DNA of 64,000 nucleotides, from positions 1,002,918-1,066,917 of the forward strand of contig CP066686.1 of NCBI GenBank assembly GCA_016432365.1, read 5' to 3'. The notes under the pieces were generated by a model. That model was given only the letters and a program-made list of their open reading frames with translations, searched no databases and was not told the DNA's origin. Shown here piece after piece: positions 3,400 through 27,801 of this stretch. This DNA comes from Candidatus Woesebacteria bacterium (GTDB taxonomy: Bacteria > Patescibacteriota > Microgenomatia > UBA8517). A program made the position numbers and the translations under genes. The stretch's first letter is position 1. Each line of letters begins with the position of its first letter.

Positions 3400-3425
3400 A
3401 AATATCAGACTATATGAATAGTGCA

Positions 3426-3893: not shown

Positions 3894-4441
3894 GATATAA
3901 TTGATACAATTATAATAAGCTTAACATAAACGCATTTGCAAGCATTAAGAGAGCTTAATTCCACTTCCCTGCCCCCAGTAAATATAATAGCCAAAAGTTC
4001 GGTCTAAAAGAGGGGTAATTTTTCTTAGCACTCATTAACATCGGCTGCCAACTCCTGCTTTGATGATTAATAATTAAATTAAAATCAAATACTATACAGG
4101 CATGGGTTGCATTCATGCATAATTATATAAGTCTACTTCAAAAAAGGCCTCATTTTCCGCAACACAATGCTAAAGCAAAGAATAAACGCAGTTTTCCGCA
4201 AGTTTGCCTTCGTGCCTGAATATTAGGTAAAAAATGGTCAATAATGTGTATTATAAACAGATAAAATCTAAAAAATATAAAATAATTGTGCGTAAATTGC
4301 TTGCGGTAATTATACTACAGACTCTGTGAAAGATATTTTAAATATTCAAAACAAATGATACGGTAAATACCCTTGACAGGCTTGATAAATATTTTAATAA
4401 TAGTCTAATCAGTATAATTTGTATAATCTAGCCTTAATAAT

Positions 4442-7900: not shown

Positions 7901-10900
7901 ACATTATTTGAAGCAACAGCCAGCGCAATAACCTCCGGAAACATGATCAAACTCGGTCAAGGTGGAAATTCGGCATTCTCAGGAAACGGGATTTGGATGG
8001 ATTTTGATAATACAGGTGGTGGAGGTGGAACTTTCACCGGAAACTTTTTGAAGTTTGACAACGCAACTACTACCAAATTTATCGTCGATGCCAGTGGAAA
8101 TCTTGGCGGGGCCGGAGTAGGACAATTTGGCAGCACAACCGTGACAACTTATTCCAGATTTGGGTCAGCAACCACCGGACACGCTCTTTCCAGCGCCAGT
8201 GATCTTTTGGTTAGTGGAAAATTGGAACTTAACGACACTCTGTTCCTTGACGGTGGGACTATTGCAAACTCAGCAGGAACAGGAACTATTACTTTTTCTA
8301 CTACCCCCACAACCTCCTCCAATGCCCTTTCAGCCAGCAACTGGCTTATCGAAAACACTGCTAATGTGGGGCAAGCTGCATTAATAGTCAATCAGCAAAA
8401 AGGAGGAGATCTGTTTACCGCTTCGGCGTCCGGCACCCCCAAATTCACTATTTCTAACACAGGAGTTTTAACCCTGGCAAACAACGAAACAATTGACAAC
8501 ACAACAGATGGGACAGTTAATGTTGGAGCAACGACTTTTAAACTAACCGGAGGCACCACTGTAGTATCTGATCAAGCAACTGTAGCACTGTTCAACACTA
8601 CGACCACCTCTCTTTCTTTGGGAGGCGCGGCAACAACTTTAAACATGCTTGGTGCGGGAAGCGCAACTTTTAATATTGGAAATGCTACCGGTACAACCGC
8701 ACTAAATCTAACCAGCGGCACAGGATCACAAACTTTTACATCGTCGGTTGCGACAGGAACAGGTCTCGCCGGAGCATTTGTCTATAAAGATGCTGTCTTA
8801 ACAACCGGAGACATGATTTATGCAACAGCCTCTGCTATCACTTCGGGAAATATTATGAAACTTGGTGAAGCCGGTCCCCAGAACTTTACCGGAAATGGTC
8901 TTTATATGGACTTTGACAATACAGGCGGAGGAAGTTTTACCGGGAACTTTGTAAAACTTGACAATGCCGGAGCAGAAAAATTTAAAATCGATTCAAGCGG
9001 TAATGTTCATATATATGGCAACTTAACCTGTGATGGCAACTGCGCCGATACAAAACTTGAAACATTTGTAAATAGTGGTACCTATACTCTACCCAGTGAC
9101 GCAACCATGATAATCGTTGAGGGTTATGGATCCGGTGGTGGAGGTGGTGGTGGGTCGCAAGGAACAACCGCTCAGTACCGTGGTGGTGGTGGAGGTGGTG
9201 GTGGAGGTGCTTATGTCACCGACACTTTTCCGGCCGCCAGTGTTTCTGCCACCGTTGCCATTACTGTTCCAGCCGGTGGCGCAGGTGGAGGCTCCCTAAC
9301 TGACGGTACTGCCGGTTCCTCTTCTAGTTTTGGGTCCTACCTTACTGCCTACGGCGGTGGAGGTGGAGGAAACAATGGCGCTACCGGTGGAGGTGGCTCA
9401 GGTGGAGGTGGAGGTGGGCGTACCGGTGTCGGAGGCTCTTCGGTTGACGATGTTAATGGCGCAGGTGGTAGCCCCAACGGAGGAGCTCTTGCAGCTGACG
9501 CCATCTATAGCGACGGTGGTGCCGCCGGCGGCGATGCTGCAAGTGGCACCAACGGTTCTACTGGCGGTTCAGCCTATGTTGGTGGTGGTGGAGGTGGAGC
9601 TGCAACTACCACAGGACAAAATCAGTCTGGTCACGGCGGAAGCAGTTTACATGGTGGTGGAGGTGGAGGTGGAGGGGCCACGGCACAAGCAATTACCTGT
9701 TTGCTTAAGGACGGTGGAAACGGAGGTTCAAGTAATAATTATGCAAACCTGGGGGTCGGTGGAGCTGCGGGTGGAACTGGCGCAGGTGGAGCAGGTACAA
9801 ACGGGTCTGCACTAGCCGGATACGGTGGAGGTGGAGGTGGAGGTGGAGCCAATATATGTGCATCAGGTACCGGCGGCGCAGGTGGAAATGGTGGCGCTCC
9901 CGGAGGTGGTGGAGGTGGAGGTGGAGCCGCAGCCGCTGCATCCGGAACAACTGGTGGTACCGGTGGAACAGGAGCACGAGGAGAAATCAGAGTTTGGACA
10001 ATTAGTAGCAATGCAGCAGATTTGGCAGAAATTTATACCTCTAACGATATAAGCCTTGAGGCTGGCGACGTTGTTGCTCTTGACTCAAGCCTAAAAGCCG
10101 GTGTTAAGAAAACAACAAATACTTACGAGGATGAAACTTTAGGCATAGTCTCCACAAGACCAAACCTAGTTATAGGCGACGCCATTAAAGAAGGTAATAA
10201 TGTTGTACCGGTAGCTCTCGCAGGACGCGTTCCGGTTAAGGTAACAGCCGAAAACGGACCAATCGTTGCCGGAGACAAATTGACAAGCTCCTCTATCCCG
10301 GGTGTAGCTATGAAAGCTACAAAAACAGGTATAACGGTAGGAACAGCCATGAGTGACTTTAACGGGGTAGAAGGAGAGATTGGCAGAGTCACAGCCTTTG
10401 TTAATACTTCCTATACTCCAGGAATGCTTCTTCACAACCTACTGTCCGAAAACGGATATGATATTCCGGAAGAAGTTTGGAGATCGAATAATATCGATTA
10501 TTCTTGGATCGTTTTGGCAACGTTGGTAAGTGAAAGCAAGAAGCTTACTTCATCCCAAATTTCGGAAATATATGGTGACCGCGTTGCAGCTACGCTTGAA
10601 GTAATCGCACCGAGAATAGTTGCTAAGTCGATTTATGCCGGCGAAATTAATGCGACCGAAAGTGGCAGTTTAGTCATAAACGCTGTTAACACGATTATTG
10701 ACGGCTTGATAACAGCGAAGAATATTGTTGTAAAAAATATCGTAGCAGGGGCCATTGAAGTCAACGACCTCATTGCCCAAAATATCACTTCTAAGATATT
10801 CAAGGTTCAAATTATTACACCACTCCCCGACCAAACTGATATTGCAGTCAGACTTGGAAGTGAAGCAACCCCGTCAGGGAAATTTGCAATTCAGGATGTT

Positions 10901-11785
10901 ACAGGAGCAGAGATGGCTGCAATTGATTCATTTGGCAATGCCACCTTTTCAGGAACAGTTAACAGTCAACAGTTGGCAGTAAACAGTGAAGCAACAATAT
11001 CAGGAACATTATTTGCAGATAACATAAAATCAAAAAGCCTCGATGAAATTCAAACACTTTTAACAAAAGTGCAGTCTGATCAGAACCTATTAAAGGATTC
11101 TCAAAGCTGGAATACTCATACTGCAACAAACTCAGGTACACTTGCTGGTATTTCCGCCAGTGACCTGTATATAACCAATCAGGCCGCAATTAATTCACTG
11201 TCTGTCTCAAATAGTATTGCAGTAGGTTCCGATCTGATTTTCGGTTCTTCAGTCAATAGTATAAATACTTTATCTTCCCCTCTTGAAATCCAAAATCTTG
11301 CAATGGCACCTGTAGAAATCATGGCCGGCCTGGTTAGAATTGACACTCACGGAAATGTAGATATCGCCGGAAACTTGTTTGTTGCAGGTGAAGTTAGATC
11401 GAAAACAGGGTTCAAAGTTCAAGATTCAAATTCCAATAACGTGGCCTCGATTGATGCAGAAGGAATCGGCAACTTTAATTCAGTTTCCGCTACTCAATTT
11501 GTAATTGCAGCCGGAGTAGACGCAACTAACTCTTCAACAATAAACGGAGTTATAACAACCAATGCAACAGCAGGTTCTGCAACTATTGCATCTGGCATCA
11601 CAGAAATAACTATCAAAAATCCAAAGGTTACCGATTACACACTAATCTATGTAACACCAACCTCTTCGACAAACAACAATGTACTTTATGTCAAAAGTAA
11701 GCAGATAGGAGAATTTGTAGTCGGATTTGCAAACCCGATAGACGTCGATGCAATGTTCAACTGGTGGATCGTACAAATACAATAA
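4970..11785 (+). CDS. Giant (2,271 aa) single-pass surface protein: cytoplasmic CB-domain remnant, TM helix, beta-helix/fibre-like repeats, Gly-rich low-complexity region, C-terminal domain
   Basis: N-terminal SSPATAKRKIVSLRKFLDWA is the second half of a CB domain. TM YLNIAILVILSSALGLGIY. Long T/N/G/S-rich repeats include GNVGIGTTAPNVPLEIN, a tail-fibre-like motif. Gly runs at aa ~1380-1690. Same reading frame as 4442..4954. Confidence 0.7.
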   Translation: MSSLPTILPKVIKAYQTEIARNSSPATAKRKIVSLRKFLDWAKGKGLIDVNLEETILAQTKNETKIPAKNALNVRLQNIRNLYKRYRNIPGTSYLNIAILVILSSALGLGIYNQFFKNATNPFAATSLVRPNRYLSFQGRLTNQFLNPVTAVTSVVFTLYDAASSGTTLWTGTCNVTPDTDGVFSTLLGSDCGSEISSSVFSDNASVWLGVKVAADAEATPRIQIATVAYALNSETLQGYPASSSATINTVPVVNNSGQIVLAVSSPKIQSTTGTFAIEGQAITIQTPSASNGNVTIAPDGTGQLNLTFTGASPGSGTGMVNATDANLTSGSLYYGSVASNASGYNLLQLQSGSSLTNKFVVDSAGNASASGDLTLAGTSSIQTTTFSPLTIGGNTTGNIVLSPSNDIAGGNISPNVTNVTDLGTSSKLFRNIYGTTIYQGANQVCDAGGSVPGCASGINYWGQALGALYPLNNTTDLLIGATATTSAKFAFKNVLTGTPTASISGTTNIATFIDGNGNISSTNRNNLTLGNSSTYNTTGNILLNPNGTGNVGIGTTAPNVPLEINRDSAAAVQEIVRLSNGGAGFGTGSRISFANAGTLNQAYVESGLYNGGGLDGYLAFGTGSSGSAAEVARFDATGKFGIADTSPVSLFTVGNGDLFQIDSTGRVVNIDGVAHSIDDVSGDLTLTSNSTSVAIADDLAVNGATSADITSSTTTASLFNSTVTTLNIGGAATTLNLQGASAATLSIGNANTTTALNLSSGTGDVAISSTDLITLFPTNNVRIGNATDYASFGSAGDITFVDADGAASITGPAGGAFSVLAGASQALTLTGNAASVWSTTGGLTLRTTSGNVLVDTATAGDVTIGPDVSLGTGDDLFLQDGTLTAAVPLTVADTALNAGLTQGIIDAINDVYDLTSGSTNYWQLNTLTLSPANNTYDLAIGGTATASAKFQAFALEKAGDATSRLAKLNSSLITTGTLFEATASAITSGNMIKLGQGGNSAFSGNGIWMDFDNTGGGGGTFTGNFLKFDNATTTKFIVDASGNLGGAGVGQFGSTTVTTYSRFGSATTGHALSSASDLLVSGKLELNDTLFLDGGTIANSAGTGTITFSTTPTTSSNALSASNWLIENTANVGQAALIVNQQKGGDLFTASASGTPKFTISNTGVLTLANNETIDNTTDGTVNVGATTFKLTGGTTVVSDQATVALFNTTTTSLSLGGAATTLNMLGAGSATFNIGNATGTTALNLTSGTGSQTFTSSVATGTGLAGAFVYKDAVLTTGDMIYATASAITSGNIMKLGEAGPQNFTGNGLYMDFDNTGGGSFTGNFVKLDNAGAEKFKIDSSGNVHIYGNLTCDGNCADTKLETFVNSGTYTLPSDATMIIVEGYGSGGGGGGGSQGTTAQYRGGGGGGGGGAYVTDTFPAASVSATVAITVPAGGAGGGSLTDGTAGSSSSFGSYLTAYGGGGGGNNGATGGGGSGGGGGGRTGVGGSSVDDVNGAGGSPNGGALAADAIYSDGGAAGGDAASGTNGSTGGSAYVGGGGGGAATTTGQNQSGHGGSSLHGGGGGGGGATAQAITCLLKDGGNGGSSNNYANLGVGGAAGGTGAGGAGTNGSALAGYGGGGGGGGANICASGTGGAGGNGGAPGGGGGGGGAAAAASGTTGGTGGTGARGEIRVWTISSNAADLAEIYTSNDISLEAGDVVALDSSLKAGVKKTTNTYEDETLGIVSTRPNLVIGDAIKEGNNVVPVALAGRVPVKVTAENGPIVAGDKLTSSSIPGVAMKATKTGITVGTAMSDFNGVEGEIGRVTAFVNTSYTPGMLLHNLLSENGYDIPEEVWRSNNIDYSWIVLATLVSESKKLTSSQISEIYGDRVAATLEVIAPRIVAKSIYAGEINATESGSLVINAVNTIIDGLITAKNIVVKNIVAGAIEVNDLIAQNITSKIFKVQIITPLPDQTDIAVRLGSEATPSGKFAIQDVTGAEMAAIDSFGNATFSGTVNSQQLAVNSEATISGTLFADNIKSKSLDEIQTLLTKVQSDQNLLKDSQSWNTHTATNSGTLAGISASDLYITNQAAINSLSVSNSIAVGSDLIFGSSVNSINTLSSPLEIQNLAMAPVEIMAGLVRIDTHGNVDIAGNLFVAGEVRSKTGFKVQDSNSNNVASIDAEGIGNFNSVSATQFVIAAGVDATNSSTINGVITTNATAGSATIASGITEITIKNPKVTDYTLIYVTPTSSTNNNVLYVKSKQIGEFVVGFANPIDVDAMFNWWIVQIQ
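9120..9990 (+). repeat. GGT/GGA glycine-codon low-complexity tract inside the giant gene
   Basis: Repeated ggtggaggtgg units encode GGGGGGG runs. The antisense strand gives a spurious Pro-rich ORF. Confidence 0.6.
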
Positions 11786-15597: not shown

Positions 15598-16260
15598 ATG
15601 CATAAATTTGAAAGGTTTCTATTTTTTTACAGCATTCTTGCCATAACTGTATTTTTTATATCATTCGGAGTTTTCTCTCCTTCCCCCCTTAACTTTATAA
15701 GTGGCATTCTAATGCTCCCCAGCGCCTTTTACTTCTGGATACGGACGACCGACCCGGAACACTCAAGTCCAAACGTATGGTCCGTAAGATTCGTTTTGGT
15801 TTTAGGGCTTTTGTCGACTTTTGGAATCTTCGGATTTTACCTTGCATCAAGGGGTTTGCCGCAAATCCGAGTCCTTGAGGAAAAAATTGATGGTCTCGCT
15901 ATCAAAAACACAGGTTTACAAAACGAGCTGGAAAAAACAAACTCCGAACTGGCTAAGTTTAAACAAAGTATCGCTACTCCTTCGGCTACTGTAAAGGGAA
16001 TTAGTACAAACGATATAACAGTTGCTGATCTGGTTGCCGGATCGCCGACACCGGGTTCAGGACAAAGAATAACGGGTATTTCCGGCCAATCTTCGATTAA
16101 CGTTTACCAATCCACTTCCCTCTCCTCCCCAAAAATCGGCACCGTCGACGGTAGTATCACCTATCCGTATATAACAAAACAAGACGGTTGGTATAAAATA
16201 GTTTTAACTAGTGCCAAGACCGGCTGGGTAAACGAAAATCAGGTGGTCGAAATACAATAA
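15598..16260 (+). CDS. Membrane protein with coiled coil and C-terminal SH3b-like domain
   Basis: Three TM helices in the N-terminus. C-terminal GWYKIVLTSAKTGWVNENQVVEI is SH3b-like. Confidence 0.4.
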   Translation: MHKFERFLFFYSILAITVFFISFGVFSPSPLNFISGILMLPSAFYFWIRTTDPEHSSPNVWSVRFVLVLGLLSTFGIFGFYLASRGLPQIRVLEEKIDGLAIKNTGLQNELEKTNSELAKFKQSIATPSATVKGISTNDITVADLVAGSPTPGSGQRITGISGQSSINVYQSTSLSSPKIGTVDGSITYPYITKQDGWYKIVLTSAKTGWVNENQVVEIQ

Positions 16261-16269
16261 CCTACAAAT

Positions 16270-17073
16270 ATGAAGTCACTGCTTCCAAAATTACTGTTTT
16301 TTTACTCAACAGTTATTGCAATACTGATAACAGTTAGTAGTGGAAGGTTTGTTTTTCTGTTTTTGCCGGTTCTTACTTATTTTCTTTTAGAAACGACGCG
16401 TCGGTTCTTTTTCTCGCAAGATCAAATTCTCTCGGCTGGCATTGAAAAGATATTGATATATTACGGTTTTGTAATAAGTTGTCTTGTAATGGTAATGGGT
16501 TTTGTATCTGCGGGCAGCCTGACTCAGATAATTACCGGAACACTGTTTATCCCATTATTTATATATTTTGCTTCCCAGGTTTTTCCAAGAAGAAACCGAG
16601 CCGTCCGCCTTCCGAAAACTCCAGAAATAATAATCCAGACTACCGAAGATAAAGTTGACGAAAAAACCATGAAACTGAAAAAGGAAGGCGTAGATGTTGA
16701 CCGCAGAGTGTTTCTAAAGCTGATTAGTTCGGCAGGGCTTAGTCTTTTCTTGTTCTCAATATTTACCAAACGGGCAGAGGCAGCATTTTTCGGAAGTGTT
16801 CCGGGACCGGGAACGGTGTCTGTTAAAGATATTGCAGGAAATAAAATCAATCCTGCAGAAAAACAACCAACAGACGGCTATCGAATCAGTAGGCTTGACG
16901 ATGCTTCCCCCGCCTACTACGGATTTACAAACAAAGACGGAGCCTGGTTTGTGATGAAAGAATTGGAAGACGGGTCCTACCTTTACCGAAAAGGAAACTC
17001 CGGTTTTGCCGCGGCGTGGGCAGAAAGAGGAAACCTGGGTATTACATACGATGAATTTGAGAACGTATTTTAA
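16270..17073 (+). CDS. Membrane protein carrying an internal twin-arginine (RRVFLK) signal followed by a ~95-aa exported domain
   Basis: Four N-terminal TM helices. Then MKLKKEGVDVDRRVFLKLISSAGLSLFLFSIFTKRAEA matches Tat signal consensus S/T-RRxFLK plus h-region plus AxA. Confidence 0.4.
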   Translation: MKSLLPKLLFFYSTVIAILITVSSGRFVFLFLPVLTYFLLETTRRFFFSQDQILSAGIEKILIYYGFVISCLVMVMGFVSAGSLTQIITGTLFIPLFIYFASQVFPRRNRAVRLPKTPEIIIQTTEDKVDEKTMKLKKEGVDVDRRVFLKLISSAGLSLFLFSIFTKRAEAAFFGSVPGPGTVSVKDIAGNKINPAEKQPTDGYRISRLDDASPAYYGFTNKDGAWFVMKELEDGSYLYRKGNSGFAAAWAERGNLGITYDEFENVF

Positions 17074-17122: not shown

Positions 17123-17620
17123 TTGAGTATGAAACTTTCAAAAGAGATTTGGCTCGTAGTTGCGTTTGTTGCTTTTCTTCTGGCTTGGCTTATCGACAGA
17201 CTGGCTGGACCTGTATCGATCGCTGTCGGAAACCCGATTGCATTTCTTTCCTCCTCAAGACTCCTTAACACCTATCCGTTTACGGCAACGGCAATAATCA
17301 TAAGAACTCTCGCAATTTTTATTTCAGCAATGCTGATTCTTTCACTCTTTAACAGAAAATACTTTACCAAAGCCGTTGTTTTATTCTTCATTTGTGTTCT
17401 GGCTGAATTTTTTTCAATTCAACAACTCGCAACAGGGTTTAGAGTCACAACCATACAGTGGACACTTTCGATTGCCTATGCAAGTCTTATCTTAGGGGTC
17501 GGGATTGTCTGGCTAATCCTAATGGGAATCTGGGCAAGTTTTAATAAAGAAACCACCTCTACCGAAAGCTCCAGCGAGGCGAGAGAAGATTCAGTACTCA
17601 CCCCTCCCGAGTCGGAATAA
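17123..17620 (+). CDS. Polytopic small membrane protein
   Basis: Four to five hydrophobic helices and an acidic C-terminus. Confidence 0.4.
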   Translation: MSMKLSKEIWLVVAFVAFLLAWLIDRLAGPVSIAVGNPIAFLSSSRLLNTYPFTATAIIIRTLAIFISAMLILSLFNRKYFTKAVVLFFICVLAEFFSIQQLATGFRVTTIQWTLSIAYASLILGVGIVWLILMGIWASFNKETTSTESSSEAREDSVLTPPESE

Positions 17621-17701: not shown

Positions 17702-18118
17702 TTACTTGTTTACAATCAATCTCCAGGCCAATCTCTGCATTATATAAGCCCCAAGTCCGATTGCAAAAGTCCAGAAATAATTAGTGATTCCAAATCCGGC
17801 AACTTGAGAAAATCTGGAAACTATCCAAAACGCAAAAATGTTTGCGCTGAAAAAATAACCGAACGTGACTGCGGCACTATCGAACTTAATTCCTTTGCTC
17901 ATGGCAAAATCCCAAAGAACCCAAATGAAAAAAGTTACCCAAAAACCGGCATATATAGCCGACTCAACGGGATTAAAACGCCAATTACCCAGAACTATTT
18001 CTTGAGAAAACATACTTCCAAAAAAATACAAAACTACGGAGTTAACTAACCAATAAGCAAAATATAATAAGTGGTTATACATAAATCTCACCCCATCTCT
18101 ATTCCATGAATATATCAT
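17702..18118 (-). CDS. Polytopic small membrane protein
   Basis: Hydrophobic W/F-rich helices throughout. Confidence 0.4.
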   Translation of the reverse strand: MIYSWNRDGVRFMYNHLLYFAYWLVNSVVLYFFGSMFSQEIVLGNWRFNPVESAIYAGFWVTFFIWVLWDFAMSKGIKFDSAAVTFGYFFSANIFAFWIVSRFSQVAGFGITNYFWTFAIGLGAYIMQRLAWRLIVNK

Positions 18119-18158: not shown

Positions 18159-20576
18159 ATGGCATACATTGTTGACTACGCAATTACCGAAAACGCTGCG
18201 GGTGGAGCTACTTCTGTCAGTGCCAACGTCCCTCCTCATGAAGCCGACGACTACTTGGTTGTGTTTTCGTCAGTCAACGGTACAGCCGGTGGTACCTCGG
18301 GCAACACCAACTCAGGTATAACCGTCTCGGGTTGGACTCAAATTGGCACTTTTTTAACTGCCAACACTGGTATTTCCACTTCGGTTTATTATCTCAAATG
18401 TGCCTCTAGTTCCGAAACGTGCACGGTTGCTATTACAACCGCCGACGACTATACCATCAAAGTGATATGTATTCGAGACGCCGACACCACCAACTTCCTA
18501 GACTCTGGTACCGTAATCTCTACCACAAACACTTCTACTGCATCTAAGTGGTCCTCGCCTACGATGTCGACCAATCAAAACGACTCGCTTGTAATGTACT
18601 GTCATGGTTACGACGGATCCCAACCAGCCCTGCACACAGATCCTGGCACGATGTTCTATATCAGTTCCGACTCAACGGGTACTACCGCACAAACTTCCGC
18701 CGCTGGCGCAGTAGCTTGGTATATCCAGCGTACTGCCGGTACCACTCCTGGGCCTAGTTGGACTTGCAGTGTGGGCGATGATCGTACCAATCATGTTTTT
18801 GCTATCCGCAACAAATCTGGTGGTCGTATACCGGCCTATATCGATGATGCCAACACTACCGCTGCCACAGTGATGATGGGACATCATTTTAGTACTCTCA
18901 ACAACTTAACTTTCGCCGGTGCCCTCACGATCGCCAATATCGGCCCAAGTGGTAGTGGTAAAACTGCCACACTCGACGCAGCCGCAGCTGCCGCTGACTA
19001 TGGTTTGAATCCCTACTCCTCAGCACTCTCCTCGACTCCCGCTGCCACTGCCGCTACAGGCGTTGCGGGATTTGAAGTCACCCTCACCAACACCATCGAT
19101 ATGTCGTCTGGATTTCTAGTCGGTACAATCGTTGCTTTAAACCCTAAGATGGCCAACTACATCCATGGCAATATTACTCAGGGTGGAACTTATATAGTAC
19201 TGGCCAGCGGCACGACGGCCAACACCGATTATGCCAGTTATCAGGTAGCCGCTCGTGACTCTGACCCTAATACAGGTAAACGTATGGTCTTTTCGGTCCA
19301 ACCCTCCCAGACGACCACTGCCTACGGCACCAATGGATCCTTTAGCGCCTCCGCGGTCAAAAGGCTCATGTTCTTGTCCAACAACCCGACAGCCACAATC
19401 ACCCTCTACACGGCCGAATGGTTTCATGTCACTAAAATCGCTTGTGCAGGAGGAGACAGTAGCAACCCGGTCGATACGGAAGGGCTAGCCGCGATCGGCT
19501 CGAGTTTTCGCATCCCCCTTTTTGAGCGCTCCGGTGCCGCCGGAATTTTGTGTTTCGTCCCAATCCAGATTGGTGGCGGTGATGCAATTAACTTCCAGAT
19601 TGATGCTGGTGCGTTACAGTTCCCACGCATCTATAGCACTACCAAAAAACAAATCAACTTCCACGCCAATGGTTCCTCTGCCATCGGTATTTCCTATGCC
19701 GGGAAATCAGGGGATGTAATCAAACACACCAATTCCGTAGTTACGTCTCCATCACCATATTATTGGGAAATAAATTCTGCCGCTACGAGCGCAGCGACAT
19801 GGGATTTTAGCGGTCTGGTTATCGTTGGCGCAGTTGTGACACTGCGTAATGTAATGACTTTTGACGGTATGAGTTTTGTCTCTTGTATATCTATTACGGC
19901 TTCCGGCTGTACCATAATTAATGCAGCAATATCCAACCTACCAGCCGGAAACGATACTTTAACTACCAACGGTTCAACCGTCATCAGCAGCTCTGCTATT
20001 AATGTAACCGGGGTAACCGCCGGTAACAGATGGTGCTCTGTAGCAAATCCCACAATCTTTTCCGGTTGCGTATTTACAGGTTCAGGTTCATCCGGACATG
20101 CCATAAGAATTACGACAGCCGGCACCTACAACCTTTCAGGCAATACTTTTAACAGTTTTGGTGCCGATGGTTCAACAAGCGCGGCAATCTACAATGATTC
20201 GGGTGGATCGGTAACACTTAATATTGTAGGCGGAGGTAATAGTCCAACATATAGAAATGGTGCAGGAGCCTCAACCACGGTTAACCTTAATGTAACTCTG
20301 ACTATAAATATTACCGATTCAGACGGCACAGCAATTTCCCAAAACTGTGAGGTAACAGTTGTGAAGGTAAGTGATGAGTCCGTCCTTTTCCATGAGGATA
20401 ATATTACCGACGGATCAACAGCTTATTCTTTCAATTCCGGCGGAGGAACCGCGGTTTACATTAACGTCCTTAACGTCACCGGTTATCAGAACAAAACTGT
20501 ATATTTAAATTTACCGACCTCAGATACAACAACGATTGTTGCACTGGATACGGATAGGATTTATACCAACCCTTAA
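18159..20576 (+). CDS. Large T/S/G-rich right-handed beta-helix-like protein (tailspike/pectate-lyase-like repeats), no signal peptide
   Basis: Repeats such as TASGCTIINAAISN..SGCVFTGSGSSGHAIRITTAGTYNLSGNTFNSFGADGS. N-terminus MAYIVDY and C-terminus DTDRIYTNP are paralogous to the next gene. Confidence 0.5.
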   Translation: MAYIVDYAITENAAGGATSVSANVPPHEADDYLVVFSSVNGTAGGTSGNTNSGITVSGWTQIGTFLTANTGISTSVYYLKCASSSETCTVAITTADDYTIKVICIRDADTTNFLDSGTVISTTNTSTASKWSSPTMSTNQNDSLVMYCHGYDGSQPALHTDPGTMFYISSDSTGTTAQTSAAGAVAWYIQRTAGTTPGPSWTCSVGDDRTNHVFAIRNKSGGRIPAYIDDANTTAATVMMGHHFSTLNNLTFAGALTIANIGPSGSGKTATLDAAAAAADYGLNPYSSALSSTPAATAATGVAGFEVTLTNTIDMSSGFLVGTIVALNPKMANYIHGNITQGGTYIVLASGTTANTDYASYQVAARDSDPNTGKRMVFSVQPSQTTTAYGTNGSFSASAVKRLMFLSNNPTATITLYTAEWFHVTKIACAGGDSSNPVDTEGLAAIGSSFRIPLFERSGAAGILCFVPIQIGGGDAINFQIDAGALQFPRIYSTTKKQINFHANGSSAIGISYAGKSGDVIKHTNSVVTSPSPYYWEINSAATSAATWDFSGLVIVGAVVTLRNVMTFDGMSFVSCISITASGCTIINAAISNLPAGNDTLTTNGSTVISSSAINVTGVTAGNRWCSVANPTIFSGCVFTGSGSSGHAIRITTAGTYNLSGNTFNSFGADGSTSAAIYNDSGGSVTLNIVGGGNSPTYRNGAGASTTVNLNVTLTINITDSDGTAISQNCEVTVVKVSDESVLFHEDNITDGSTAYSFNSGGGTAVYINVLNVTGYQNKTVYLNLPTSDTTTIVALDTDRIYTNP

Positions 20577-20740
20577 AATTAATATATCAATTCCGTCTTT
20601 AACATATCAATTCCGACGTAAATATAAATCCCCCTTGACAGACCTTGCCACGGTCGCTGTAAACTGTTTGTAATCTCGGTTTCGAACATTTGAATGGTTG
20701 AAGATTTGAAATCAAGACTACATAATAGAAATATAGTTAT

Positions 20741-22312
20741 ATGGCGAAAATTGTTGATCCAGATTCATTAAATCAAGCAACCGAAGTTGTAATCGATACG
20801 ACAGGTAAAACGATCCAACTTTTAGCTACAGGAAACCTTAGTAATGCCTCCCCCGGTTCAACGTCCGGTGTCACCCTCCAGGCTGTTTATTCTTTCTTAA
20901 AAGAGGAGTGGAAAACCGATGCAGCATTAAACAAATTCAAATTTCCCATCAAAATGTTTACAAAAACTGATGGAATTATGATTAACGGTTGGGATTGGGA
21001 AGACGCGACGACAAGAAGTTTAATTAGGGACGGCGGATGGGAAGAAACGGGTGGAGATAAATATGCCAGCATAGTTTCACTTGGAAACTTTGACTCCTCA
21101 AGCGACCAGGCTTATTATCAGCACGTCATCGGATACGACCAAAGTATAGTCAACTTCGGCCATACTGGAAACTTAAACGAGGCCATTCTTATAAGCGGTT
21201 TTACGGGTTACCTCAAACTATTTCTTCGCATTGCCTCGGGTTCTGGAACCGGTAAATTATATTCAGAATATAATCTTTTAACAGAACAAACTATCTCCGC
21301 CCTTGAACCTGTCCTTTATAAGTTGCCTCTAAGTAACTCCACAGACTTGAAAATTAATACAGCTGATGCGGCTTTTGCTTCCGGTATTTATACCGGAATG
21401 GAAATTAATTACCTTAAAGGTGTAGGGTTCACAACTTATGCAAATTCAACCGTTTACCCCGCCGGATCAGTTGTCCAAGAAGCAACTGGGTCACCAAAGC
21501 ATTGGTTTTTTACAGCAGCCGGAGGAACTTCAAATGGAGCCGATGTTCAAACAGATACGGGAGTTACCGACTGGGCAGCTTATGATGGTGAAGTTCAAAT
21601 CGGAACAAATTACTATGCATTTAACAGAATCATAACAGGTAACAACGGAACAGCTCAACAAATATACAACTGGGCGCAATACCAACTTAGGCAAACTACT
21701 GATATCAATGACAACAATTCTACAACTGTAAATCAGAGAAGCGGCATGGTGGTAAAAGGAAATGTTGCCGAACTTCTTTTAGAATTTGTTGGAGATACCC
21801 TTAAAACAAAACCCGGCCTTTATATTGCAGGGTTCCATGCAGATTCCACCAACTCCATTAAGTTCCGTGACATTACAGTTGATGGCGGAGGCGTTGATAC
21901 AAACACCAAGCTCCCAGTCACAACAACGGAACGTAATTATCCGTTCGTCGCGACCGGGACGTTGAACTTCAGCGCCAATCTTGTTACAGAAACTGACAGC
22001 AATACCAAATACACTATGTACTTTACATCCACCCCATCGGGCAACTTCGACACATCAAACGCAGTTATTGTTAAAAACAACGCGGGAACAGACATCACAG
22101 GTCAAATTACGGCCGCCTCGATCGCTTTTGACTTTGATTATGACGGCAATGTCCAAGGAGGCAGAACCGCCGGAACTGACGCCGCTGTATCCATCGTAGC
22201 CCAGGGTTTGCCGGGCGCTACATGGGTTCTCACTACATTTACAATAACAAGAGCAACAGGACAATCTATTACCATAAACGCCGACGACGAAAGGAACTAC
22301 GCTAATCCCTAA
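20741..22312 (+). CDS. Paralogous beta-rich structural protein (no signal peptide), possible fibre or S-layer-like protein
   Basis: N-terminus MAKIVD. Motif EEWKTDAALNKFKFPI is shared with 22841..23353. C-terminus DDERNYANP is similar to the previous gene. Stop overlaps the start of the next gene (TAATGG). Confidence 0.5.
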   Translation: MAKIVDPDSLNQATEVVIDTTGKTIQLLATGNLSNASPGSTSGVTLQAVYSFLKEEWKTDAALNKFKFPIKMFTKTDGIMINGWDWEDATTRSLIRDGGWEETGGDKYASIVSLGNFDSSSDQAYYQHVIGYDQSIVNFGHTGNLNEAILISGFTGYLKLFLRIASGSGTGKLYSEYNLLTEQTISALEPVLYKLPLSNSTDLKINTADAAFASGIYTGMEINYLKGVGFTTYANSTVYPAGSVVQEATGSPKHWFFTAAGGTSNGADVQTDTGVTDWAAYDGEVQIGTNYYAFNRIITGNNGTAQQIYNWAQYQLRQTTDINDNNSTTVNQRSGMVVKGNVAELLLEFVGDTLKTKPGLYIAGFHADSTNSIKFRDITVDGGGVDTNTKLPVTTTERNYPFVATGTLNFSANLVTETDSNTKYTMYFTSTPSGNFDTSNAVIVKNNAGTDITGQITAASIAFDFDYDGNVQGGRTAGTDAAVSIVAQGLPGATWVLTTFTITRATGQSITINADDERNYANP

Positions 22313-22737
22313 TGGATAATCTAACCCGACGAAATATCAGATACATTTGCTTCAGACTCCAAACTGAAGCAGAAGGCGGATCTAAAGCCGAAGCTGAAGA
22401 AACCGGAATAATGAGTTATGTTGATCAAATAAAAGAATTAATGGAATCCCAATCTGAATTTGAAGGTTGGAAAAAATTTGCCAAAACTTGGGATGTAGGA
22501 GAAGAAGATCCTTTAAAGGCTGTGAACAGACTATCGAGTATTCAAAACGACTGGAATAAAGTATTAAAAAAAGAGGCTAAAGAACTTTCTGTCAATCAAC
22601 CAAAAAAAATCGTTCAACGCGGGCCGGGCGGTAGATTTGTAAGTAAAAAGACAAAAACCGAGAATCCCGTGCTCCCTCCTCCTGAAACAGAGGAGTCTCC
22701 GACCCCAAAGAAAAGTATTTGGGACGTCCTTAAGTAG
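22312..22737 (+). CDS. Small charged hypothetical protein, translationally coupled to the upstream gene
   Basis: ATG overlaps the upstream TAA. K/E-rich. TAG stop. Confidence 0.4.
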   Translation: MDNLTRRNIRYICFRLQTEAEGGSKAEAEETGIMSYVDQIKELMESQSEFEGWKKFAKTWDVGEEDPLKAVNRLSSIQNDWNKVLKKEAKELSVNQPKKIVQRGPGGRFVSKKTKTENPVLPPPETEESPTPKKSIWDVLK

Positions 22738-22840
22738 CGTATATACTCCTCTCACTCGAGTTTGCAACTCTCGTTAGAGATTATATACTCGAAATTTTCG
22801 TTTGCGTATGCAAACTCAAGTTTCTTGAGTATAATAAAAC

Positions 22841-23353
22841 ATGGCCGCAAAGATGACTTATGATGCTCCCAATAAGCTGTTCATCCTAAATACCGGAGTT
22901 GTCGACTTTGATGTTGTTGTAGATTTATATTCAGACGCCAAAGAAGATTGGCTAAGCGATCCACTTTTAAATAAATTCAGATTCCCAATTGTCGCAATCG
23001 GTGGACAAGCGATCGGTGGTGGACGTGTTATTTCTCCTTATATAATGTTGAGGTATGGCTGGAAAGTTAGACCACATGAGGCAGATCACACCCTAACTGT
23101 TGCCGGAAACCTGATTACAGATGATGAAACAACTCCTTTTGCAAGCGTCCTCGGCAACTATCAGGTTGTCATCAAATCTATTGTTTCCTCAAATTCCCTA
23201 ACAGCGGCAGGAACGGCGCTCTCCTCTTCCGATTTAACAAGTATAATAAGCGGTGTTTGGGACGAGGCAATTGCCGCGCATCTTTCCCCGGGTTCTGCCG
23301 CAAAAATATTAAAAGATATAAAGACAAAAGCTACTTTGGCCTCACTTAAGTAG
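22841..23353 (+). CDS. Small protein sharing an N-terminal module with 20741..22312
   Basis: LYSDAKEDWLSDPLLNKFRFPIVAIGG versus VYSFLKEEWKTDAALNKFKFPIKMF. TATAAT 12 nt upstream of the ATG. Confidence 0.45.
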   Translation: MAAKMTYDAPNKLFILNTGVVDFDVVVDLYSDAKEDWLSDPLLNKFRFPIVAIGGQAIGGGRVISPYIMLRYGWKVRPHEADHTLTVAGNLITDDETTPFASVLGNYQVVIKSIVSSNSLTAAGTALSSSDLTSIISGVWDEAIAAHLSPGSAAKILKDIKTKATLASLK

Positions 23354-23405: not shown

Positions 23406-23612
23406 ATGTTTAGCTTTCTTAAAAATATCGGGCCTACAGAATTAATCATAATCGGGGTCATCTTAATAGTCTTTTTCGGCTCCAAAAAAATTGCCGGACT
23501 TGGTAAAGCAGGTGGAGAAACGGTCAGGGAAGTCAAAAAAATCAAAAAAGAACTTTCGGGTGCAATGGATGAGGTCAAGGAAGACGATACGAAAGAGGAG
23601 GTGGAAAATTAA
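23406..23612 (+). CDS. tatA: Twin-arginine translocase subunit TatA/E
   Basis: LIIIGVILIVFFGSKKIAGLGKAGGETVREVKKIKK matches the TatA TM helix plus amphipathic-helix consensus (FG.KKLP.LG..LG). Confidence 0.7.
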   Translation: MFSFLKNIGPTELIIIGVILIVFFGSKKIAGLGKAGGETVREVKKIKKELSGAMDEVKEDDTKEEVEN

Positions 23613-23759
23613 ATGGCAAATCTTGGTTTAACAGAAATTTTAGTAATTGCTTTAATAATTATTCTACTTTTTGGCGGAAAGAAGATTCCAGAATTTTTTA
23701 AAGGTTTGGGAGAATCGATAAAAGAGTTTAAAAAAGCTTCAAAAGACACCGACAAATAA
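23613..23759 (+). CDS. tatA: TatA paralog (48 aa)
   Basis: [48 protein letters not shown]. Below the 60-aa cutoff of the ORF track. Confidence 0.6.
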
Positions 23760-23804: not shown

Positions 23805-24569
23805 GTGGTAAACATTAAACCTCTTGAACCGGGTGAGCTACAGGGCATTATAAACAAATACTCCCCTTTTTTAATGGAAGTAAGGAAAAGAGTCTCTTTT
23901 GTTCTTTCTATTTTTGTAATTGCCATGATCGTTGGCTTCACTTTTTACGAAAAAATAATCAAGTTTCTGGTCGATGCCTTAAGCCTCCAGGGAGTTAACA
24001 TTGTTTTTACCTCGCCTTTTCAGTTTATCAACTTAGCGATTTCTTGTGGAATTGTAATCGGGCTTATTTTTGTTTTCCCGCTCATTATTGCTCAAATACT
24101 TTCGTTTCTTAAGCCTGCTCTGCGCGAAAAAGAATACAGGGCAATTCTTGTTTTTCTACCATTCTCAATATTCCTATTTTTAATCGGTTTTGCCTTCGGC
24201 GCCTTCATAATGAAATGGCAAATACAAATATTTCTTGGAAGGTCCACTGCCCTTGGTATCGGAAACATTTTGGACATCAGCAAACTCCTGACTCAAATAC
24301 TCCTAACTTCCGCGCTTATGGGAATTGGTTTTCAGTTTCCTATTCTCCTTTTGATTTTGATGCGTATGAAAGTGATCAAACATCACCAGCTAAGCAAACA
24401 GCGGCCATGGGTGTATCTTGGTTCTTTTATGTTTGCGCTTCTTCTTCCCCCTGATTCTCTACTGGCTGATTTTGTTCTTACATTGCCCCTTGTAATTCTA
24501 TTCGAAGTTACGCTACTATTAAACAAGATATTCGAGGCCAAAGGAGCCTTAGAGAAAGGAAGTGATTAA
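23805..24569 (+). CDS. tatC: Twin-arginine translocase subunit TatC
   Basis: 254 aa with six predicted TM helices, placed between tatA paralogs. TatC-like loops and length. Confidence 0.75.
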   Translation: MVNIKPLEPGELQGIINKYSPFLMEVRKRVSFVLSIFVIAMIVGFTFYEKIIKFLVDALSLQGVNIVFTSPFQFINLAISCGIVIGLIFVFPLIIAQILSFLKPALREKEYRAILVFLPFSIFLFLIGFAFGAFIMKWQIQIFLGRSTALGIGNILDISKLLTQILLTSALMGIGFQFPILLLILMRMKVIKHHQLSKQRPWVYLGSFMFALLLPPDSLLADFVLTLPLVILFEVTLLLNKIFEAKGALEKGSD

Positions 24570-24729: not shown

Positions 24730-25113
24730 ATGGACCTAACCATAGTTTTATTTGCTTTGATTGGGCCCTTTTTGGTTTGGCCGGTCGAGTATTTTCTCCC
24801 CTACCCTTCGTTTGTAGAAGAGTTGTTTAAGGCGATTCTTATTTATTTTTTACCACAAAAAAATTATAAAACTGTCGTTATCTCCGGTGTTGCATTTGCT
24901 CTGACCGAAACAGTGCTTTATGCTTTTAATATATTCAACTTTGGGGGCCTTGAGCTTATGCTTACGAGGTTGCTTTCAACCTCAATTCTCCACAGCGCAA
25001 CGTTTTTAACAATTTATATATTCGGAAAGAACGGCGGATGGAGACTAATAATAGGATTAATCATCGCCGTTTTGATACATTACATATACAATACATATAT
25101 TCCGATATATTAA
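24730..25113 (+). CDS. Small polytopic membrane protein
   Basis: Four hydrophobic helices. No recognisable motif. Confidence 0.35.
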   Translation: MDLTIVLFALIGPFLVWPVEYFLPYPSFVEELFKAILIYFLPQKNYKTVVISGVAFALTETVLYAFNIFNFGGLELMLTRLLSTSILHSATFLTIYIFGKNGGWRLIIGLIIAVLIHYIYNTYIPIY

Positions 25114-25143: not shown

Positions 25144-27801
25144 TCATTCTTTCGATGAATACTCTTTGGAAACAAAACCTTCAGTCCCGTCTTCCAATTG
25201 GACTTTGTACCAACTTCCGGCATCTTCCAGAAACGGCAACCTGTCCCCTACACTAACCTTTGCGATCTCCTGACCACCTGGAGTTTTTCTGACTCTTAAA
25301 AAGCCTGTAGGAGTGTCAGAGACAACAACTAAGTACTGACCTCCAACACCCAGATTTTCCTGCTCCAAATATGATTCGGGTTCAGACTTTGATTCCACCA
25401 TCGGTACTGGAGTTGACACCGGCTCAGAAGACTGAACACCAAGTACCGCCATTTTTTGTTCGTAACTATTAGCAACAACTCTGCTTACAACATACCCTGT
25501 TGCGGCCGCACTGACAACACTGCTAAACAACATCACAGCGATAAAACTTGCAGGATGTACCTTACTACCTTTAGACGAGGGCTTCTTAACATCTGTATTG
25601 GATATCTGACTTTCACCGGCAGTAAGCTGTGCTTTAGCCCTGGAAGTAATTGTATTCATATACATTGCCATGAACACAAATCCGGAGGCTATAACTATAA
25701 TAATTCCCCAAACTGCTATTGCCTGACTCCCACCGACAAATCCAAACAAGCTTCCCGCAGCCGAAGCCTGAGCCACAAGCTCTTTCATGGCCGTGAGTTT
25801 GGTTTCTGCCGAAGCTTTGAGGACTTCTGCCTGTCTATAAGCTTTAATCTTATCCTCGGGAGTTGTGGCTCCATCTATAAGAATTGAGATTTGGCTCATA
25901 GAAGCATCGATATCACTTTTTAAAGTTACCCCCTGGGCAAAAAATGCTGTTTTCTCAAGGGGTTTATACAGTGCAGCTGCTTGATCTCTCATACTTTGAA
26001 TTTCAGTAGGAGTTATTTCCCAAATATCTTTTGTCTCAACCGAAAAGGTCCTGGTTTGACCGGCCGCAAGATTAAAAGTTCCCGACACATAAAGCTGGTC
26101 CTTTTCTGAATCATAGTTAACGGTTAATCCCGGATCGGATTTGATAATATCGTCTTTTTTGATTTCCTGAGGCAAATAATATTTGACATCAACCGTCTGA
26201 GATATAAGTGTTGACGGATTTGTGGCCAAAGTTTTAAATACGATACTTCCGATTTCGAGCCAGGTACTAACCAAGGTCTTACCTGACCCAAGGCTCAAAA
26301 GCATTTTATTAGAATTAATAATGCCCCTTAAACCCAATAAAGCATTTTTGACCGAGTTTGTATCGGTCGGATTTACTTTTACCAAGGCTCCTGACGCACC
26401 TGATACTTTATTTAAAGCAATTATTTGGTTTTGAATAATCCCGATTTGTGAAACAGTACCTTCCACATCTTTTGATTTTGTAAATGCTCCTAAAATTTTA
26501 TCTACCTGATTCCCTTTTTCATCAAGTTTCGTGGCTAGATCTTGAGTGGTTTTTATTCTTACAAACAAAGTCTTAGCGGGACTTGAGTCACTAACAGTTC
26601 CTATCGATTTTTCCAAAGCCAAAGAACTTTTAACCAAGAGTTTAGCCTGGGCGTATAAAGCCGGAGATTTTTGATAATCAGCCAAACCTTCTTTAAGATC
26701 GGAGATTATTTTGTCCGTTGTTACAAGTTGATCGTAGACTTTTGATGACTCGTCCCAATTCCAAGAATCGCGAATCCAATTGACCGAGCCAAACATTGTA
26801 TTTGCATCGGAAGAATCGGCAGAACTTCCCAAAATGTTGGAGAGAGCAATTACCCCATCCAGCAAATCTTTTCCGTTGGTTTTATTCCAATTCGAGGTTA
26901 ATGTAGCCGACTGAGCGGTAAGAAATTGATTGTTTACATAAAGCTGATTGGCCATAGAACGGGTACCGCTTAGTTTGTCCGATAGCGGTACTGTCGTATT
27001 TTCCAATACATTTTGGATGACGGGTTTGTTAACTACCTTTTCCAAAAGCAGTCTTGTCTCAGTTGTTACATTTTTAATATCGGTAATACTATTGGTGACA
27101 TTAGTAACATTGGTAACCGCCGTTGTCGTTGAGATATCCCCTACTTTTGATTTGACCGAATCGACATTCGAATTAACATTGTCTAAGTCACTTTTGGTTG
27201 CCAAATCTCCCGATGTAAGCCCCGCTCCTGTGAGAGTTCTTGTCGCGTTTGCCCAAATGTCCGCAATTAGAGTGCCGAAAGACCCGATAGAACTGACTGT
27301 TCTTGTTGAATAGCTCCAAATGTCTGCAGGAAGGGTTCCGAATGAGTCAAGAGTTTTTCCTGAAAATCCCCAAACAGCAGTGGCGATTGAATTTGTATCC
27401 GGAACTGAGGCAGGTACCGGATCTATTTGAAAGCTTTTGTCTATTTTAAGTGTATCTCCGGAAACTACACAAGCGATGGTTGTTGGATACATTCCGGTTG
27501 TTGACGGAGCCGTAAATGAATAGTAGTACCAACCATCAACACCGCCTCCACTTAGTGGCTGCGCCGCAAGAAAAGATGAAAGATTTGGGTATTCGGAAGT
27601 GACTGAACAAGTTGCACCGGCTATCGGGGCAGAATTATCGTCGTATAAAAATTCTCCAACTGTACATGTAGATCCTACTATACAATTTTGAATCCCGCCG
27701 GCTGCAGCCGTTACTTCGCTAGGCGAAAAAACCGCCGCAGTCATTAGCAGGGTTAAAGCCAGAGCGGATGCAAATTTGGTTGACATTCTGGCATTTTTCA
27801 T
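25144..27801 (-). CDS. Large (885 aa) secreted/surface protein with signal peptide, helical/coiled regions, C-proximal TM segments and C-terminal SH3b-like domain
   Basis: MKNARMSTKFASALALTLLMTAAVFSPSEVTAAAGG signal. C-terminal GGQYLVVVSDTPTGFLRVRKTPGGQEIAKVSVGDRLPFLEDAGSWYKVQLEDGTEGFVSKEY is SH3b-like. Confidence 0.5.
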   Translation of the reverse strand: MKNARMSTKFASALALTLLMTAAVFSPSEVTAAAGGIQNCIVGSTCTVGEFLYDDNSAPIAGATCSVTSEYPNLSSFLAAQPLSGGGVDGWYYYSFTAPSTTGMYPTTIACVVSGDTLKIDKSFQIDPVPASVPDTNSIATAVWGFSGKTLDSFGTLPADIWSYSTRTVSSIGSFGTLIADIWANATRTLTGAGLTSGDLATKSDLDNVNSNVDSVKSKVGDISTTTAVTNVTNVTNSITDIKNVTTETRLLLEKVVNKPVIQNVLENTTVPLSDKLSGTRSMANQLYVNNQFLTAQSATLTSNWNKTNGKDLLDGVIALSNILGSSADSSDANTMFGSVNWIRDSWNWDESSKVYDQLVTTDKIISDLKEGLADYQKSPALYAQAKLLVKSSLALEKSIGTVSDSSPAKTLFVRIKTTQDLATKLDEKGNQVDKILGAFTKSKDVEGTVSQIGIIQNQIIALNKVSGASGALVKVNPTDTNSVKNALLGLRGIINSNKMLLSLGSGKTLVSTWLEIGSIVFKTLATNPSTLISQTVDVKYYLPQEIKKDDIIKSDPGLTVNYDSEKDQLYVSGTFNLAAGQTRTFSVETKDIWEITPTEIQSMRDQAAALYKPLEKTAFFAQGVTLKSDIDASMSQISILIDGATTPEDKIKAYRQAEVLKASAETKLTAMKELVAQASAAGSLFGFVGGSQAIAVWGIIIVIASGFVFMAMYMNTITSRAKAQLTAGESQISNTDVKKPSSKGSKVHPASFIAVMLFSSVVSAAATGYVVSRVVANSYEQKMAVLGVQSSEPVSTPVPMVESKSEPESYLEQENLGVGGQYLVVVSDTPTGFLRVRKTPGGQEIAKVSVGDRLPFLEDAGSWYKVQLEDGTEGFVSKEYSSKE

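Follow-up and report, generated by a model that had tools for sequence, protein, structure and literature searches.

A phage virion-appendage gene cassette standing alone in the chromosome of a Candidatus Woesebacteria bacterium, with probable continuing allele exchange with phages

A 64,000-nucleotide stretch of a Candidatus Woesebacteria bacterium (assembly GCA_016432365.1, contig CP066686.1, positions 1,002,918 to 1,066,917; hereafter the window) carries at positions 18159-23353 a cassette of four consecutive genes, O1 to O4, three of which encode relatives of structural proteins of cyanophage Syn5, and we analyzed the origin, the conservation, and the possible role of this cassette. All four open reading frames (ORFs) lie on the forward strand. 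O1 (18159-20576) encodes the variable subunit of the cassette, a protein of 805 amino acids (aa) of the Syn5 gp54 family; O2 (20741-22312) the conserved core subunit, 523 aa, of the gp53 family; O3 (22312-22737) a small charged protein of 141 aa with a basic, proline-rich tail; and O4 (22841-23353) a small subunit of 170 aa of the gp55 family, these lengths being exactly those given in an earlier annotation made from the sequence alone (the original prediction). The overlapping or coupled starts described there were found for O2 and O3, where the O3 start lies on the O2 stop with a one-base overlap (TAATG), but not for the other two junctions, as O1 and O2 are 164 nucleotides (nt) apart and O3 and O4 103 nt. 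The true start of O3 may be an internal methionine at about residue 34. Repeats occupy both spacers, namely a 20-nt tandem direct repeat (TTAAYATATCAATTCCG...; 20579-20618) directly after the O1 stop in the O1-O2 spacer (20577-20740, forward strand), and an imperfect 25-nt inverted repeat (22742-22766 and 22809-22833) in the O3-O4 spacer (22738-22840, forward strand), and judging by their sequence and placement these may be regulatory sites. The window is chromosomal, containing genes for 23S and 5S rRNA and two for tRNA-Ala, and O1 is 100% identical to HYV90_05720, a protein of a Candidatus Woesebacteria metagenome-assembled genome (MAG) located on a 1.08-Mb contig.

The four proteins had been regarded as an operon of paralogues that share three motifs, and our comparison narrowed this description, since every motif is found in one pair only and none is common to all four. 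The N-terminal MAxIVD occurs only in O1 and O2; other members of the O1 family begin with MAAPxY or MAxxVT, so that the motif is not conserved in that family, is uninformative, and was rejected as a family signature. The internal motif reads EEWKTDAALNKFKFPI in O2 and EDWLSDPLLNKFRFPI in O4, with 59% identity over 22 aa (BLAST, E 5e-5). These two proteins have an N-terminal domain in common, as O4 residues 3-52 (22847-22996, forward strand) aligned with O2 residues 14-72 (20780-20956, forward strand; containing YSFLKEEWKTDAALNKFKFPI) in a profile-profile comparison (hhalign, probability 95.6%, E 1.3e-8), and the columns of this O2 segment are invariant or nearly so across the O2 alignments. 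The third motif, D/E-R-x-Y-x-N-P, forms the C-terminal end of O1, O2, and nearly all members of their families, and it also ends Syn5 gp53 and gp54 and CDS098-100 of Maribacter phage Panino. "Operon of paralogues" was thus an overstatement, for what is common amounts to the N-terminal domain of about 55 residues in O2 and O4 and the C-terminal tail motif in O1 and O2. Paralogy of O1 and O2 over their full length found no sequence support, the alignment of their profiles covering no more than the 31 C-terminal residues (probability 11%, E 0.003); the predicted structure of O2 does partly resemble that of gp54. O3 is helical and charged, and it is unrelated to O1, O2, and O4.

None of the four proteins had a significant match in Pfam, PHROGs, NCBIfam, or PADLOC (the last searched at E values up to 0.01), and neither single-sequence nor profile searches of PDB sequences gave a match. 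Among GenBank phages, by contrast, a tblastn search with O2 returned full-length matches to Syn5 gp53, S-TIP28, Panino CDS0100, and the virus Rctr197k. The match to gp53 covers O2 residues 1-523 with 33% identity (E 5e-58; 4.6e-67 by BLASTP), that to CDS0100 has 36% identity (E 4e-63, tblastn), and the O2-family alignment with gp53 contains 69 invariant columns. In Syn5, gp53 is annotated as a "structural protein." A profile of the O1 C-terminal domain (residues ~630-805; 20046-20576, forward strand), which ends in DRIYTNP, recovered Syn5 gp54 (1.4e-13) and Panino CDS099 (4e-18) and CDS098 (2e-12) in hmmsearch, whereas the relationship of O1 to gp54 was not significant by pairwise BLAST alone (E 0.26). 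O4 matched Syn5 gp55 with 37% identity over 119 aa (E 6e-15) and Panino CDS097 (E 4e-7), both by BLASTP, and on viral contigs the O4-type N-terminal domain heads proteins of 260-670 aa. For O3 no counterpart was detected in Syn5 or Panino, even by profile search; in chromosomal as well as viral loci, O3 homologues of 91-177 aa fill the same slot, with O2 on one side and O4 on the other. O3 is probably an assembly helper or a linker. The O2 family is large, with more than 3000 homologues in a large protein database and 889 clusters at 50% identity; it lacks a Pfam or NCBIfam model, a PHROG model with functional annotation, and a solved structure. These data indicated that O2, the O1 C-terminal domain, and O4 are homologous to gp53, gp54, and gp55, respectively, so that the original reading of the locus as a phage fibre or tailspike module was largely right. 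The searches gave phage homologues and no cellular S-layer or glycosidase family with cryptic signal peptides.

Confident AlphaFold2 models were obtained for the two large proteins (O1, predicted local distance difference test [pLDDT] 90.8 and predicted template modelling score [pTM] 0.85; O2, pLDDT 91.1 and pTM 0.83). In Foldseek searches the O1 model matched the glycoside hydrolase family 87 (GH87) alpha-1,3-glucanase 5zru (E 2.5e-5) and the Klebsiella K1 capsule lyase 7w1d (E 9e-3), both with low global template modelling scores (0.10-0.16), as well as carbohydrate-binding module (CBM) sandwiches of families CBM22/30/11 and transthyretin/CnaB2-like folds. The CBM-like sandwiches are probably N-terminal in the model and the small transthyretin/CnaB2-like domain C-terminal. 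The long beta-helix of the original prediction reappeared as a predicted tailspike-like helix but is confined to about residues 480-710, the span of short-strand repeats read from the strand pattern of the model, and O1 has no match to Pfam Beta_helix or Pectate_lyase. The exchangeable N-terminal part of O1 (residues ~1-630; 18159-20045, forward strand) would accordingly comprise the beta-sandwich domains and most of the beta-helix. As far as the model goes, these fold matches support a distal subunit that binds or cleaves glycans. Panino, a phage with two gp54-like genes, produces halos of the depolymerase type (PMC11590407). The O2 model is almost all beta; a PDB fold search gave nothing at E values up to 0.001, only pilin/CnaB-like domain matches with low template modelling scores, and the best match among the viral folds of BFVD was Syn5 gp54 (E 4e-6).

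The check in virome data that the original prediction had called for placed the cassette in phages. In IMG/VR, O2 relatives were found on 33 contigs, most of them in the order O1-O2-O3-O4 and none with the genes that flank the cassette in the window; Tat (twin-arginine translocation) genes were absent beside the cassette in all IMG/VR contigs compared. In GTDB genomes 48 loci were found, about 35 of which, in bins of many phyla, resemble phage or prophage DNA. PHROG matches among 101 ORFs flanking 18 phage-like loci were mostly to head and packaging functions, and the flanking families included portal, head morphogenesis, prohead protease, terminase large subunit, and major head proteins. The locus L054, whose O2 is 62% identical to that of the window, is preceded directly by portal and major head genes; L167 (O2, 60%) lies in a contig of 142 kb that carries sheath and T4 gp13-like genes; and L169 (O2, 69%) lies in a phage-like contig of 148 kb. 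Both size classes of O1 (~530 aa and ~800-890 aa) are present in phages, and the 893-aa O1 of IMG/VR contig L086 is a 42% identical counterpart of O1 residues 1-670. Two loci assigned to a Candidatus Multivoradales MAG (Acidobacteriota), L013 and L014, carry matching copies with the same ORF coordinates and an O2 54% identical to that of the window; they are located on two Mb-scale contigs, 14-28 kb from the contig ends, L013 together with a terminase large subunit, and may reflect an assembly broken by a repeated prophage or an artefact of circular permutation.

In the window, the cassette has a different setting. Upstream of O1 lie, in order, genes for a Cache sensor, an SH3_3 membrane protein (15598-16260, forward strand), a 267-aa protein with several transmembrane (TM) segments and an internal Tat signal (16270-17073, forward strand), and two small multi-TM proteins (17123-17620, forward strand; 17702-18118, reverse strand); downstream of O4 follow tatA, tatA, and tatC (23406-23612, 23613-23759, and 23805-24569, forward strand; Pfam TatC, 9.7e-40) and genes for a PrsW-like protein and a large SH3_3 protein. 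Both flanks are conserved and not of phage type. Eight chromosomal loci have this neighbourhood, namely the window, L003, L004, L006, and L009-L012, among them MAGs labelled Daviesbacteria and Woesebacteria; the label "uncultured Gammaproteobacteria" of the third-party annotation assemblies L006, L009, L011, and L012 contradicts their gene content and was disregarded. In each of the eight loci compared the four ORFs are intact, the upstream flanking genes (W genes) adjoin the cassette in 8 of the 8 chromosomal loci with enough flank, and Tat genes adjoin it or lie within 10 kb in eight, even though in L003 the two flanking blocks stand in reversed order. When the ORFs of phage loci (sets of 597 and 631) were compared with the window, no match fell outside 18159-23353, and in the window and 10 related chromosomal loci O1-O4 was the only stretch that matched them, with sharp borders. 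Capsid, portal, and terminase families were lacking among the other window ORFs of at least 150 aa (Pfam scan) and among the flanking genes, no att-like or flanking direct repeats occur in or beside the cassette, and neither an integrase nor another phage remnant lies at it, the flanks consisting of the Cache, SH3_3, membrane, and Tat proteins. The original prediction's statement that the window lacks capsid, terminase, and portal genes was therefore borne out by the Pfam scan and the phage-locus comparison alike, and within the window only the four genes are phage-like.

Mobile and defence-type genes have entered some of the related loci. The O1-O2 spacer is an insertion site, holding AbiEii toxin-antitoxin pairs in L004/L005 (confirmed with Pfam) and two more ORFs in L006. 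In L004 such AbiEii-type pairs lie upstream of O1 and between O1 and O2 (2564-4019 and 5716-7004), in L006 extra ORF pairs of similar sizes occupy the same positions (1475-4278 and 6574-7854), and in L003 an IS200-type (Y1_Tnp) transposase (7649-8299) adjoins O1. Unlike these relatives, the window has none of these insertions.

To compare selection on the cassette and on its flanks, nonsynonymous (dN) and synonymous (dS) substitutions were estimated from one pair, the window and its closest relative L006. The dN/dS ratios were 0.026 for O2, 0.063 for O4, and 0.12 for O3, compared with 0.10 for TatC and 0.05 for the 267-aa protein, while dS was 1.14 for O2, 0.44 for O4, 0.35 for TatC, and 0.35-0.78 for flanking genes. 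Since O4 combines a flank-like dS with a low dN/dS, purifying selection has acted on it during vertical descent in the chromosome. Across the eight loci, mean pairwise identity was 71% for O2, 74.5% for O4, and 61% for TatC, and the distances of O2 and TatC were weakly correlated (r = 0.57). In L006, O2 and TatC are 96% and 94% identical to those of the window, yet its O1 aligns from residue 630 only; the O1 proteins of the closest relatives have ~525 aa and lack the window-type N-terminal part, and the C-terminal domain is the sole part conserved across chromosomal and viral O1-like proteins. GC content at third codon positions was 0.46 in O1 against ~0.37 in neighbouring genes, with O2-O4 at background. 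In a neighbor-joining tree of O2, the phage copies L054, L083, L169, L062, and L167 fell inside the chromosomal group (support 99, 98, and 84). Taken together, the interleaved tree, the high dS of O2, the replacement of the O1 N-terminal part, the mismatch between O2 and TatC, and the base composition of O1 indicated repeated allele exchange with phages, which presumably infect these Microgenomates hosts. A single domestication followed by purely vertical descent was rejected on the basis of the interleaved tree and the weak correlation of O2 and TatC distances.

The cassette is thus a case of phage fibre genes retained in a bacterial chromosome, where its identity, its isolation from other phage genes, and its purifying selection combined with allelic exchange all come together. 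We consider it probable, with some room for doubt, that O1-O4 form a complete copy of a phage virion-appendage cassette, standing alone in the chromosome, which was captured, is under selection, and is still exchanging alleles. On this account it was taken from phages of Microgenomates bacteria, and it now occupies a fixed chromosomal neighbourhood. In the assembly we envisage, O2 would be the slowly evolving core subunit, and O1, with its carbohydrate-binding-like sandwiches and depolymerase-like beta-helix as modelled, the subunit that determines ligand specificity; O4 would be a small subunit, the N-terminal domain in common with O2 possibly serving for docking, and O3 a small helper protein. 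As the proteins lack export signals, folding and assembly are presumed to be cytoplasmic, and O1-O4 would form there, just as during infection, a fibre or spike that binds glycans. What the cell may do with such a fibre is a more tentative matter. One possibility, somewhat short of an even chance and drawn by analogy, is that the cassette was exapted as an adhesin associated with the envelope, or as a fibre for glycan processing, with release from the cell by a non-classical route resembling lysis, a view favored by the stable linkage to envelope genes and by the PblA/PblB precedent described below. The other leading possibility, held to be a little less likely, is interference with infecting phages that have the same cassette, by mixed assembly or by masking of a receptor. 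In a similarly tentative vein, ultra-small bacteria of the candidate phyla radiation (CPR; Woesebacteria and Daviesbacteria) may have domesticated a capsid-free horn cassette, with continuous allelic exchange, as a glycan-binding fibre of their own or as a decoy that would sabotage or block the phages from which it derives.

Known systems resemble the cassette in part. Cyanophage Syn5 carries gp53, gp54, and gp55 as horn and knob proteins (Pope 2007; Raytcheva et al. 2014; Gipson et al. 2014), homologous to O2, the O1 C-terminal domain, and O4; its horn is reportedly built from gp53 and gp54 (Raytcheva et al. 2014). The genes of each are grouped in a single cassette, DRxYxNP stands at the extreme C terminus in both, and signal peptides are lacking in both. 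The gene order differs (gp53-gp54-gp55 in Syn5, O1-O2-O3-O4 in the window, with O3 lacking a Syn5 counterpart), identity is only 33-37%, and the window copy lies outside a phage genome, with no capsid gene to carry a horn. Syn5 gp55 has been tentatively assigned to the capsid knobs, by elimination in a 4.7-Å map (Gipson et al. 2014, PMC4102127). Uncultivated phages (IMG/VR contigs L054-L086 and the large phage-like contigs L167-L169) and Panino have the identical four-gene order, with O2 37-69% identical, but the copies of the uncultivated phages lie among portal, capsid, protease, terminase, sheath, or tail-fibre genes, whereas the window copy lies among cellular envelope genes. PblA and PblB, which come from Streptococcus mitis phage SM1, are phage tail proteins without signal peptides that become surface adhesins, to the benefit of the bacterium, after non-classical release (PMC2920869). 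These proteins, however, are encoded within a complete, inducible prophage and depend on holin and lysin, and the window cassette has no prophage, holin, or lysin. Isolated receptor-binding genes that persist and recombine with phages are also known from the tail-fibre genes of cryptic prophages (Rac, Qin, and e14 of E. coli), which usually still show an integrase or att scars along with further phage fragments and are found at the strain or species level. The window cassette differs from these in its clean borders, its strong purifying selection, and its same position across order-level divergence.

Several points weigh against the interpretation of the cassette as a selected chromosomal copy with a cellular use. 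Of the 33 IMG/VR contigs, the viral status was verified for a few only. The O2 tree was built by neighbor joining only (Kimura distances, 300 bootstraps), and phage and chromosomal O2 proteins are 56-69% identical, O2 being highly conserved among phages too, so that a slow intrinsic rate may account for some of its conservation. The cassette is also rare, with at least about 13 CPR-type loci among the 185,579 GTDB species representatives in a pattern-based scan, and since most contigs with W genes have no cassette (14 of the 16 metagenomic W-gene loci lack both it and TatC), it is an accessory element rather than a lineage-wide trait. Any use by the cell, including a benefit, is one that we infer. 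As neither a holin nor a lysin lies in the cassette or next to it, the proposed adhesin lacks support for its export route, and if the N-terminal domain of O2 and O4 docks on a capsid, a cell free of capsids would offer no docking partner; the sole basis for capsid docking is the tentative gp55 knob assignment (PMC4102127).

Of the alternatives, export of an S-layer type through the neighbouring Tat system, as the original prediction had considered, appeared very improbable. On this account the signal-less proteins would hitch-hike on the 267-aa substrate, with its DRRVFLK motif, through TatA/TatC. The cassette does sit between this conserved Tat substrate and the Tat genes, the blocks remain neighbours also in a permuted order (as in L003), and among W-gene loci TatC lies within 10 kb in all of those with the cassette and in 0 of the 14 without it, although the loci counted are not phylogenetically independent. 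The adjacency noted in the original prediction is therefore real, but it is specific to this lineage: phage cassettes are never beside Tat genes, L008 has the cassette without TatC within 10.7 kb, and three Woesebacteria genomes with ~70% identical TatC have neither the cassette nor W genes nearby. O1-O4 themselves have no signal peptide, TM segment, hydrophobic N terminus, or twin-arginine motif; their N termini are MAYIVDYAITEN, MAKIVDPDSLNQ, MDNLTRRNIRYI (with no hydrophobic region after it), and MAAKMTYDAPNK, and the maximum Kyte-Doolittle value in a 19-residue window is at most 1.7, in agreement with the original prediction that none is secreted by a signal. There is also no S-layer family match for O1-O4, and as Tat cargo, multi-domain, probably oligomeric proteins of 523-805 aa would be of unusual size. 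The idea of a strict functional tie to Tat was consequently dropped, given the Tat clusters without a cassette and the W-gene loci mostly without both. The obvious Tat client of the neighbourhood is the 267-aa protein, not O1-O4. Release through a holin-like function of the small membrane proteins beside the cassette was likewise dropped, as these had no holin PHROG match, and no lysin adjoins the cassette.

The allele exchange described above also suits two other accounts. The cassette could be selfish, or the remnant of a cryptic prophage without host function, renewed by gene conversion from infecting phages, which would gain a reservoir of alleles for changes of host range; such behaviour is known from tail-fibre genes in the cryptic lambdoid prophages of E. 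coli. The established phage origin, the polyphyletic alleles with an O2 dS above that of the flanks, the replacement of O1 between close relatives, and the rarity among species representatives are all as expected for such a remnant. We nevertheless regard it as improbable, because O4 has the dS of the flanks (0.44) at a dN/dS of 0.063, because the same four genes only, intact and sharply bordered, recur in all chromosomal loci examined with no integrase, att-like repeats, or other remnants at the cassette, and because streamlined genomes of ~1 Mb are unlikely to have kept a useless 5 kb over order-level divergence (TatC ~50% identical). The term "degraded prophage" in the original prediction likewise does not describe genes that are intact, with dN/dS of 0.026-0.12, and have nothing else phage-like around them. 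Interference with phages is less improbable, though we still hold it to be unlikely in either of its forms: host-made O1, O2, and O4 would co-assemble on progeny capsids and give mis-targeted or sticky virions, or fibre set free from the host would hide or degrade the receptor that phages use on kin cells, comparable to receptor interference by endogenous retroviral env genes. An intracellular role would need no export signal, the tracking of phage alleles by cassette alleles implies shared cells, and the specificity modules of O1 were swapped between near-identical hosts; moreover, the cassette is accessory and patchily distributed, as defence genes typically are, and the loci of relatives collect AbiE/toxin-antitoxin genes and an IS200-type transposase. 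Defence and toxin-antitoxin genes, however, also lie beside a cassette-free Tat cluster (L171), and the context is thus not specific; O1-O4 match no PADLOC model, the stable linkage to envelope genes would be left unexplained, and no fibre cassette that works on its own in defence is known to us.

If the selected chromosomal copy is accepted, a candidate case of phage-gene exaptation is at hand in ~1-Mb CPR genomes, a lineage whose surface biology and phage defence are almost unknown. Independently of that, a family known merely as Syn5 "structural proteins" is widespread, and the four-gene cassette occurs in podoviruses, myoviruses, and large phages. The Syn5 horn has so far been a curiosity of one phage, and an unannotated family now gains a handle, with the AlphaFold2 models (pLDDT ~91) as a starting point for the function of horns and head fibres. 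The cassette may also serve as a marker that links uncultivated phage contigs to Microgenomates hosts. In the literature, our coverage of which was incomplete, we found no published account of its wide phage distribution or of a stand-alone CPR chromosomal copy.

Several neighbouring features of the window deserve mention. The 267-aa protein (16270-17073, forward strand), encoded 6 kb upstream of tatA/tatC, has about four N-terminal TM helices, an internal Tat signal, and a conserved domain of ~95 aa; its invariant motif is DRRxFLK...AEA|AFFGSVPGPGT, present in the window as DVDRRVFLK followed by a hydrophobic stretch, and with at least 199 confirmed relatives it is widespread in Microgenomates metagenomes. 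From its sequence it looks like a dual Sec/Tat-inserted or a Tat-cleaved protein. On the far side of the Tat genes, an 885-aa protein (25144-27801, reverse strand) has a signal peptide, a low-complexity or coiled region, C-terminal TM segments with a weak holin PHROG match (E 9e-4), and SH3_3; together with the PrsW-like membrane protein (24730-25113) it adjoins the Tat genes in those cassette loci that extend that far. One window ORF that does not adjoin the cassette contains the core-binding domains Phage_int_SAM_1, _4, and _5, and no catalytic-domain family was among the 25 Pfam families listed in the scan that found them; it is probably one of the "CB-domain genes" in which the original prediction had seen a hint of prophage content. 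The 23S rRNA, 5S rRNA, and tRNA-Ala(TGC) genes lie at 52916-57010 on the reverse strand, and as no 16S rRNA gene reached the Rfam gathering score within the 64-kb window, the rRNA genes appear to be unlinked. An ORF of 2271 aa (4970-11785, forward strand) stands in a region of locally raised GC content (0.51 at 8-10 kb), and Pfam matches of the Big_1 and PQQ_2/DUF5074 types obtained in the window-wide scan may belong to this ORF, which may encode a giant surface protein.

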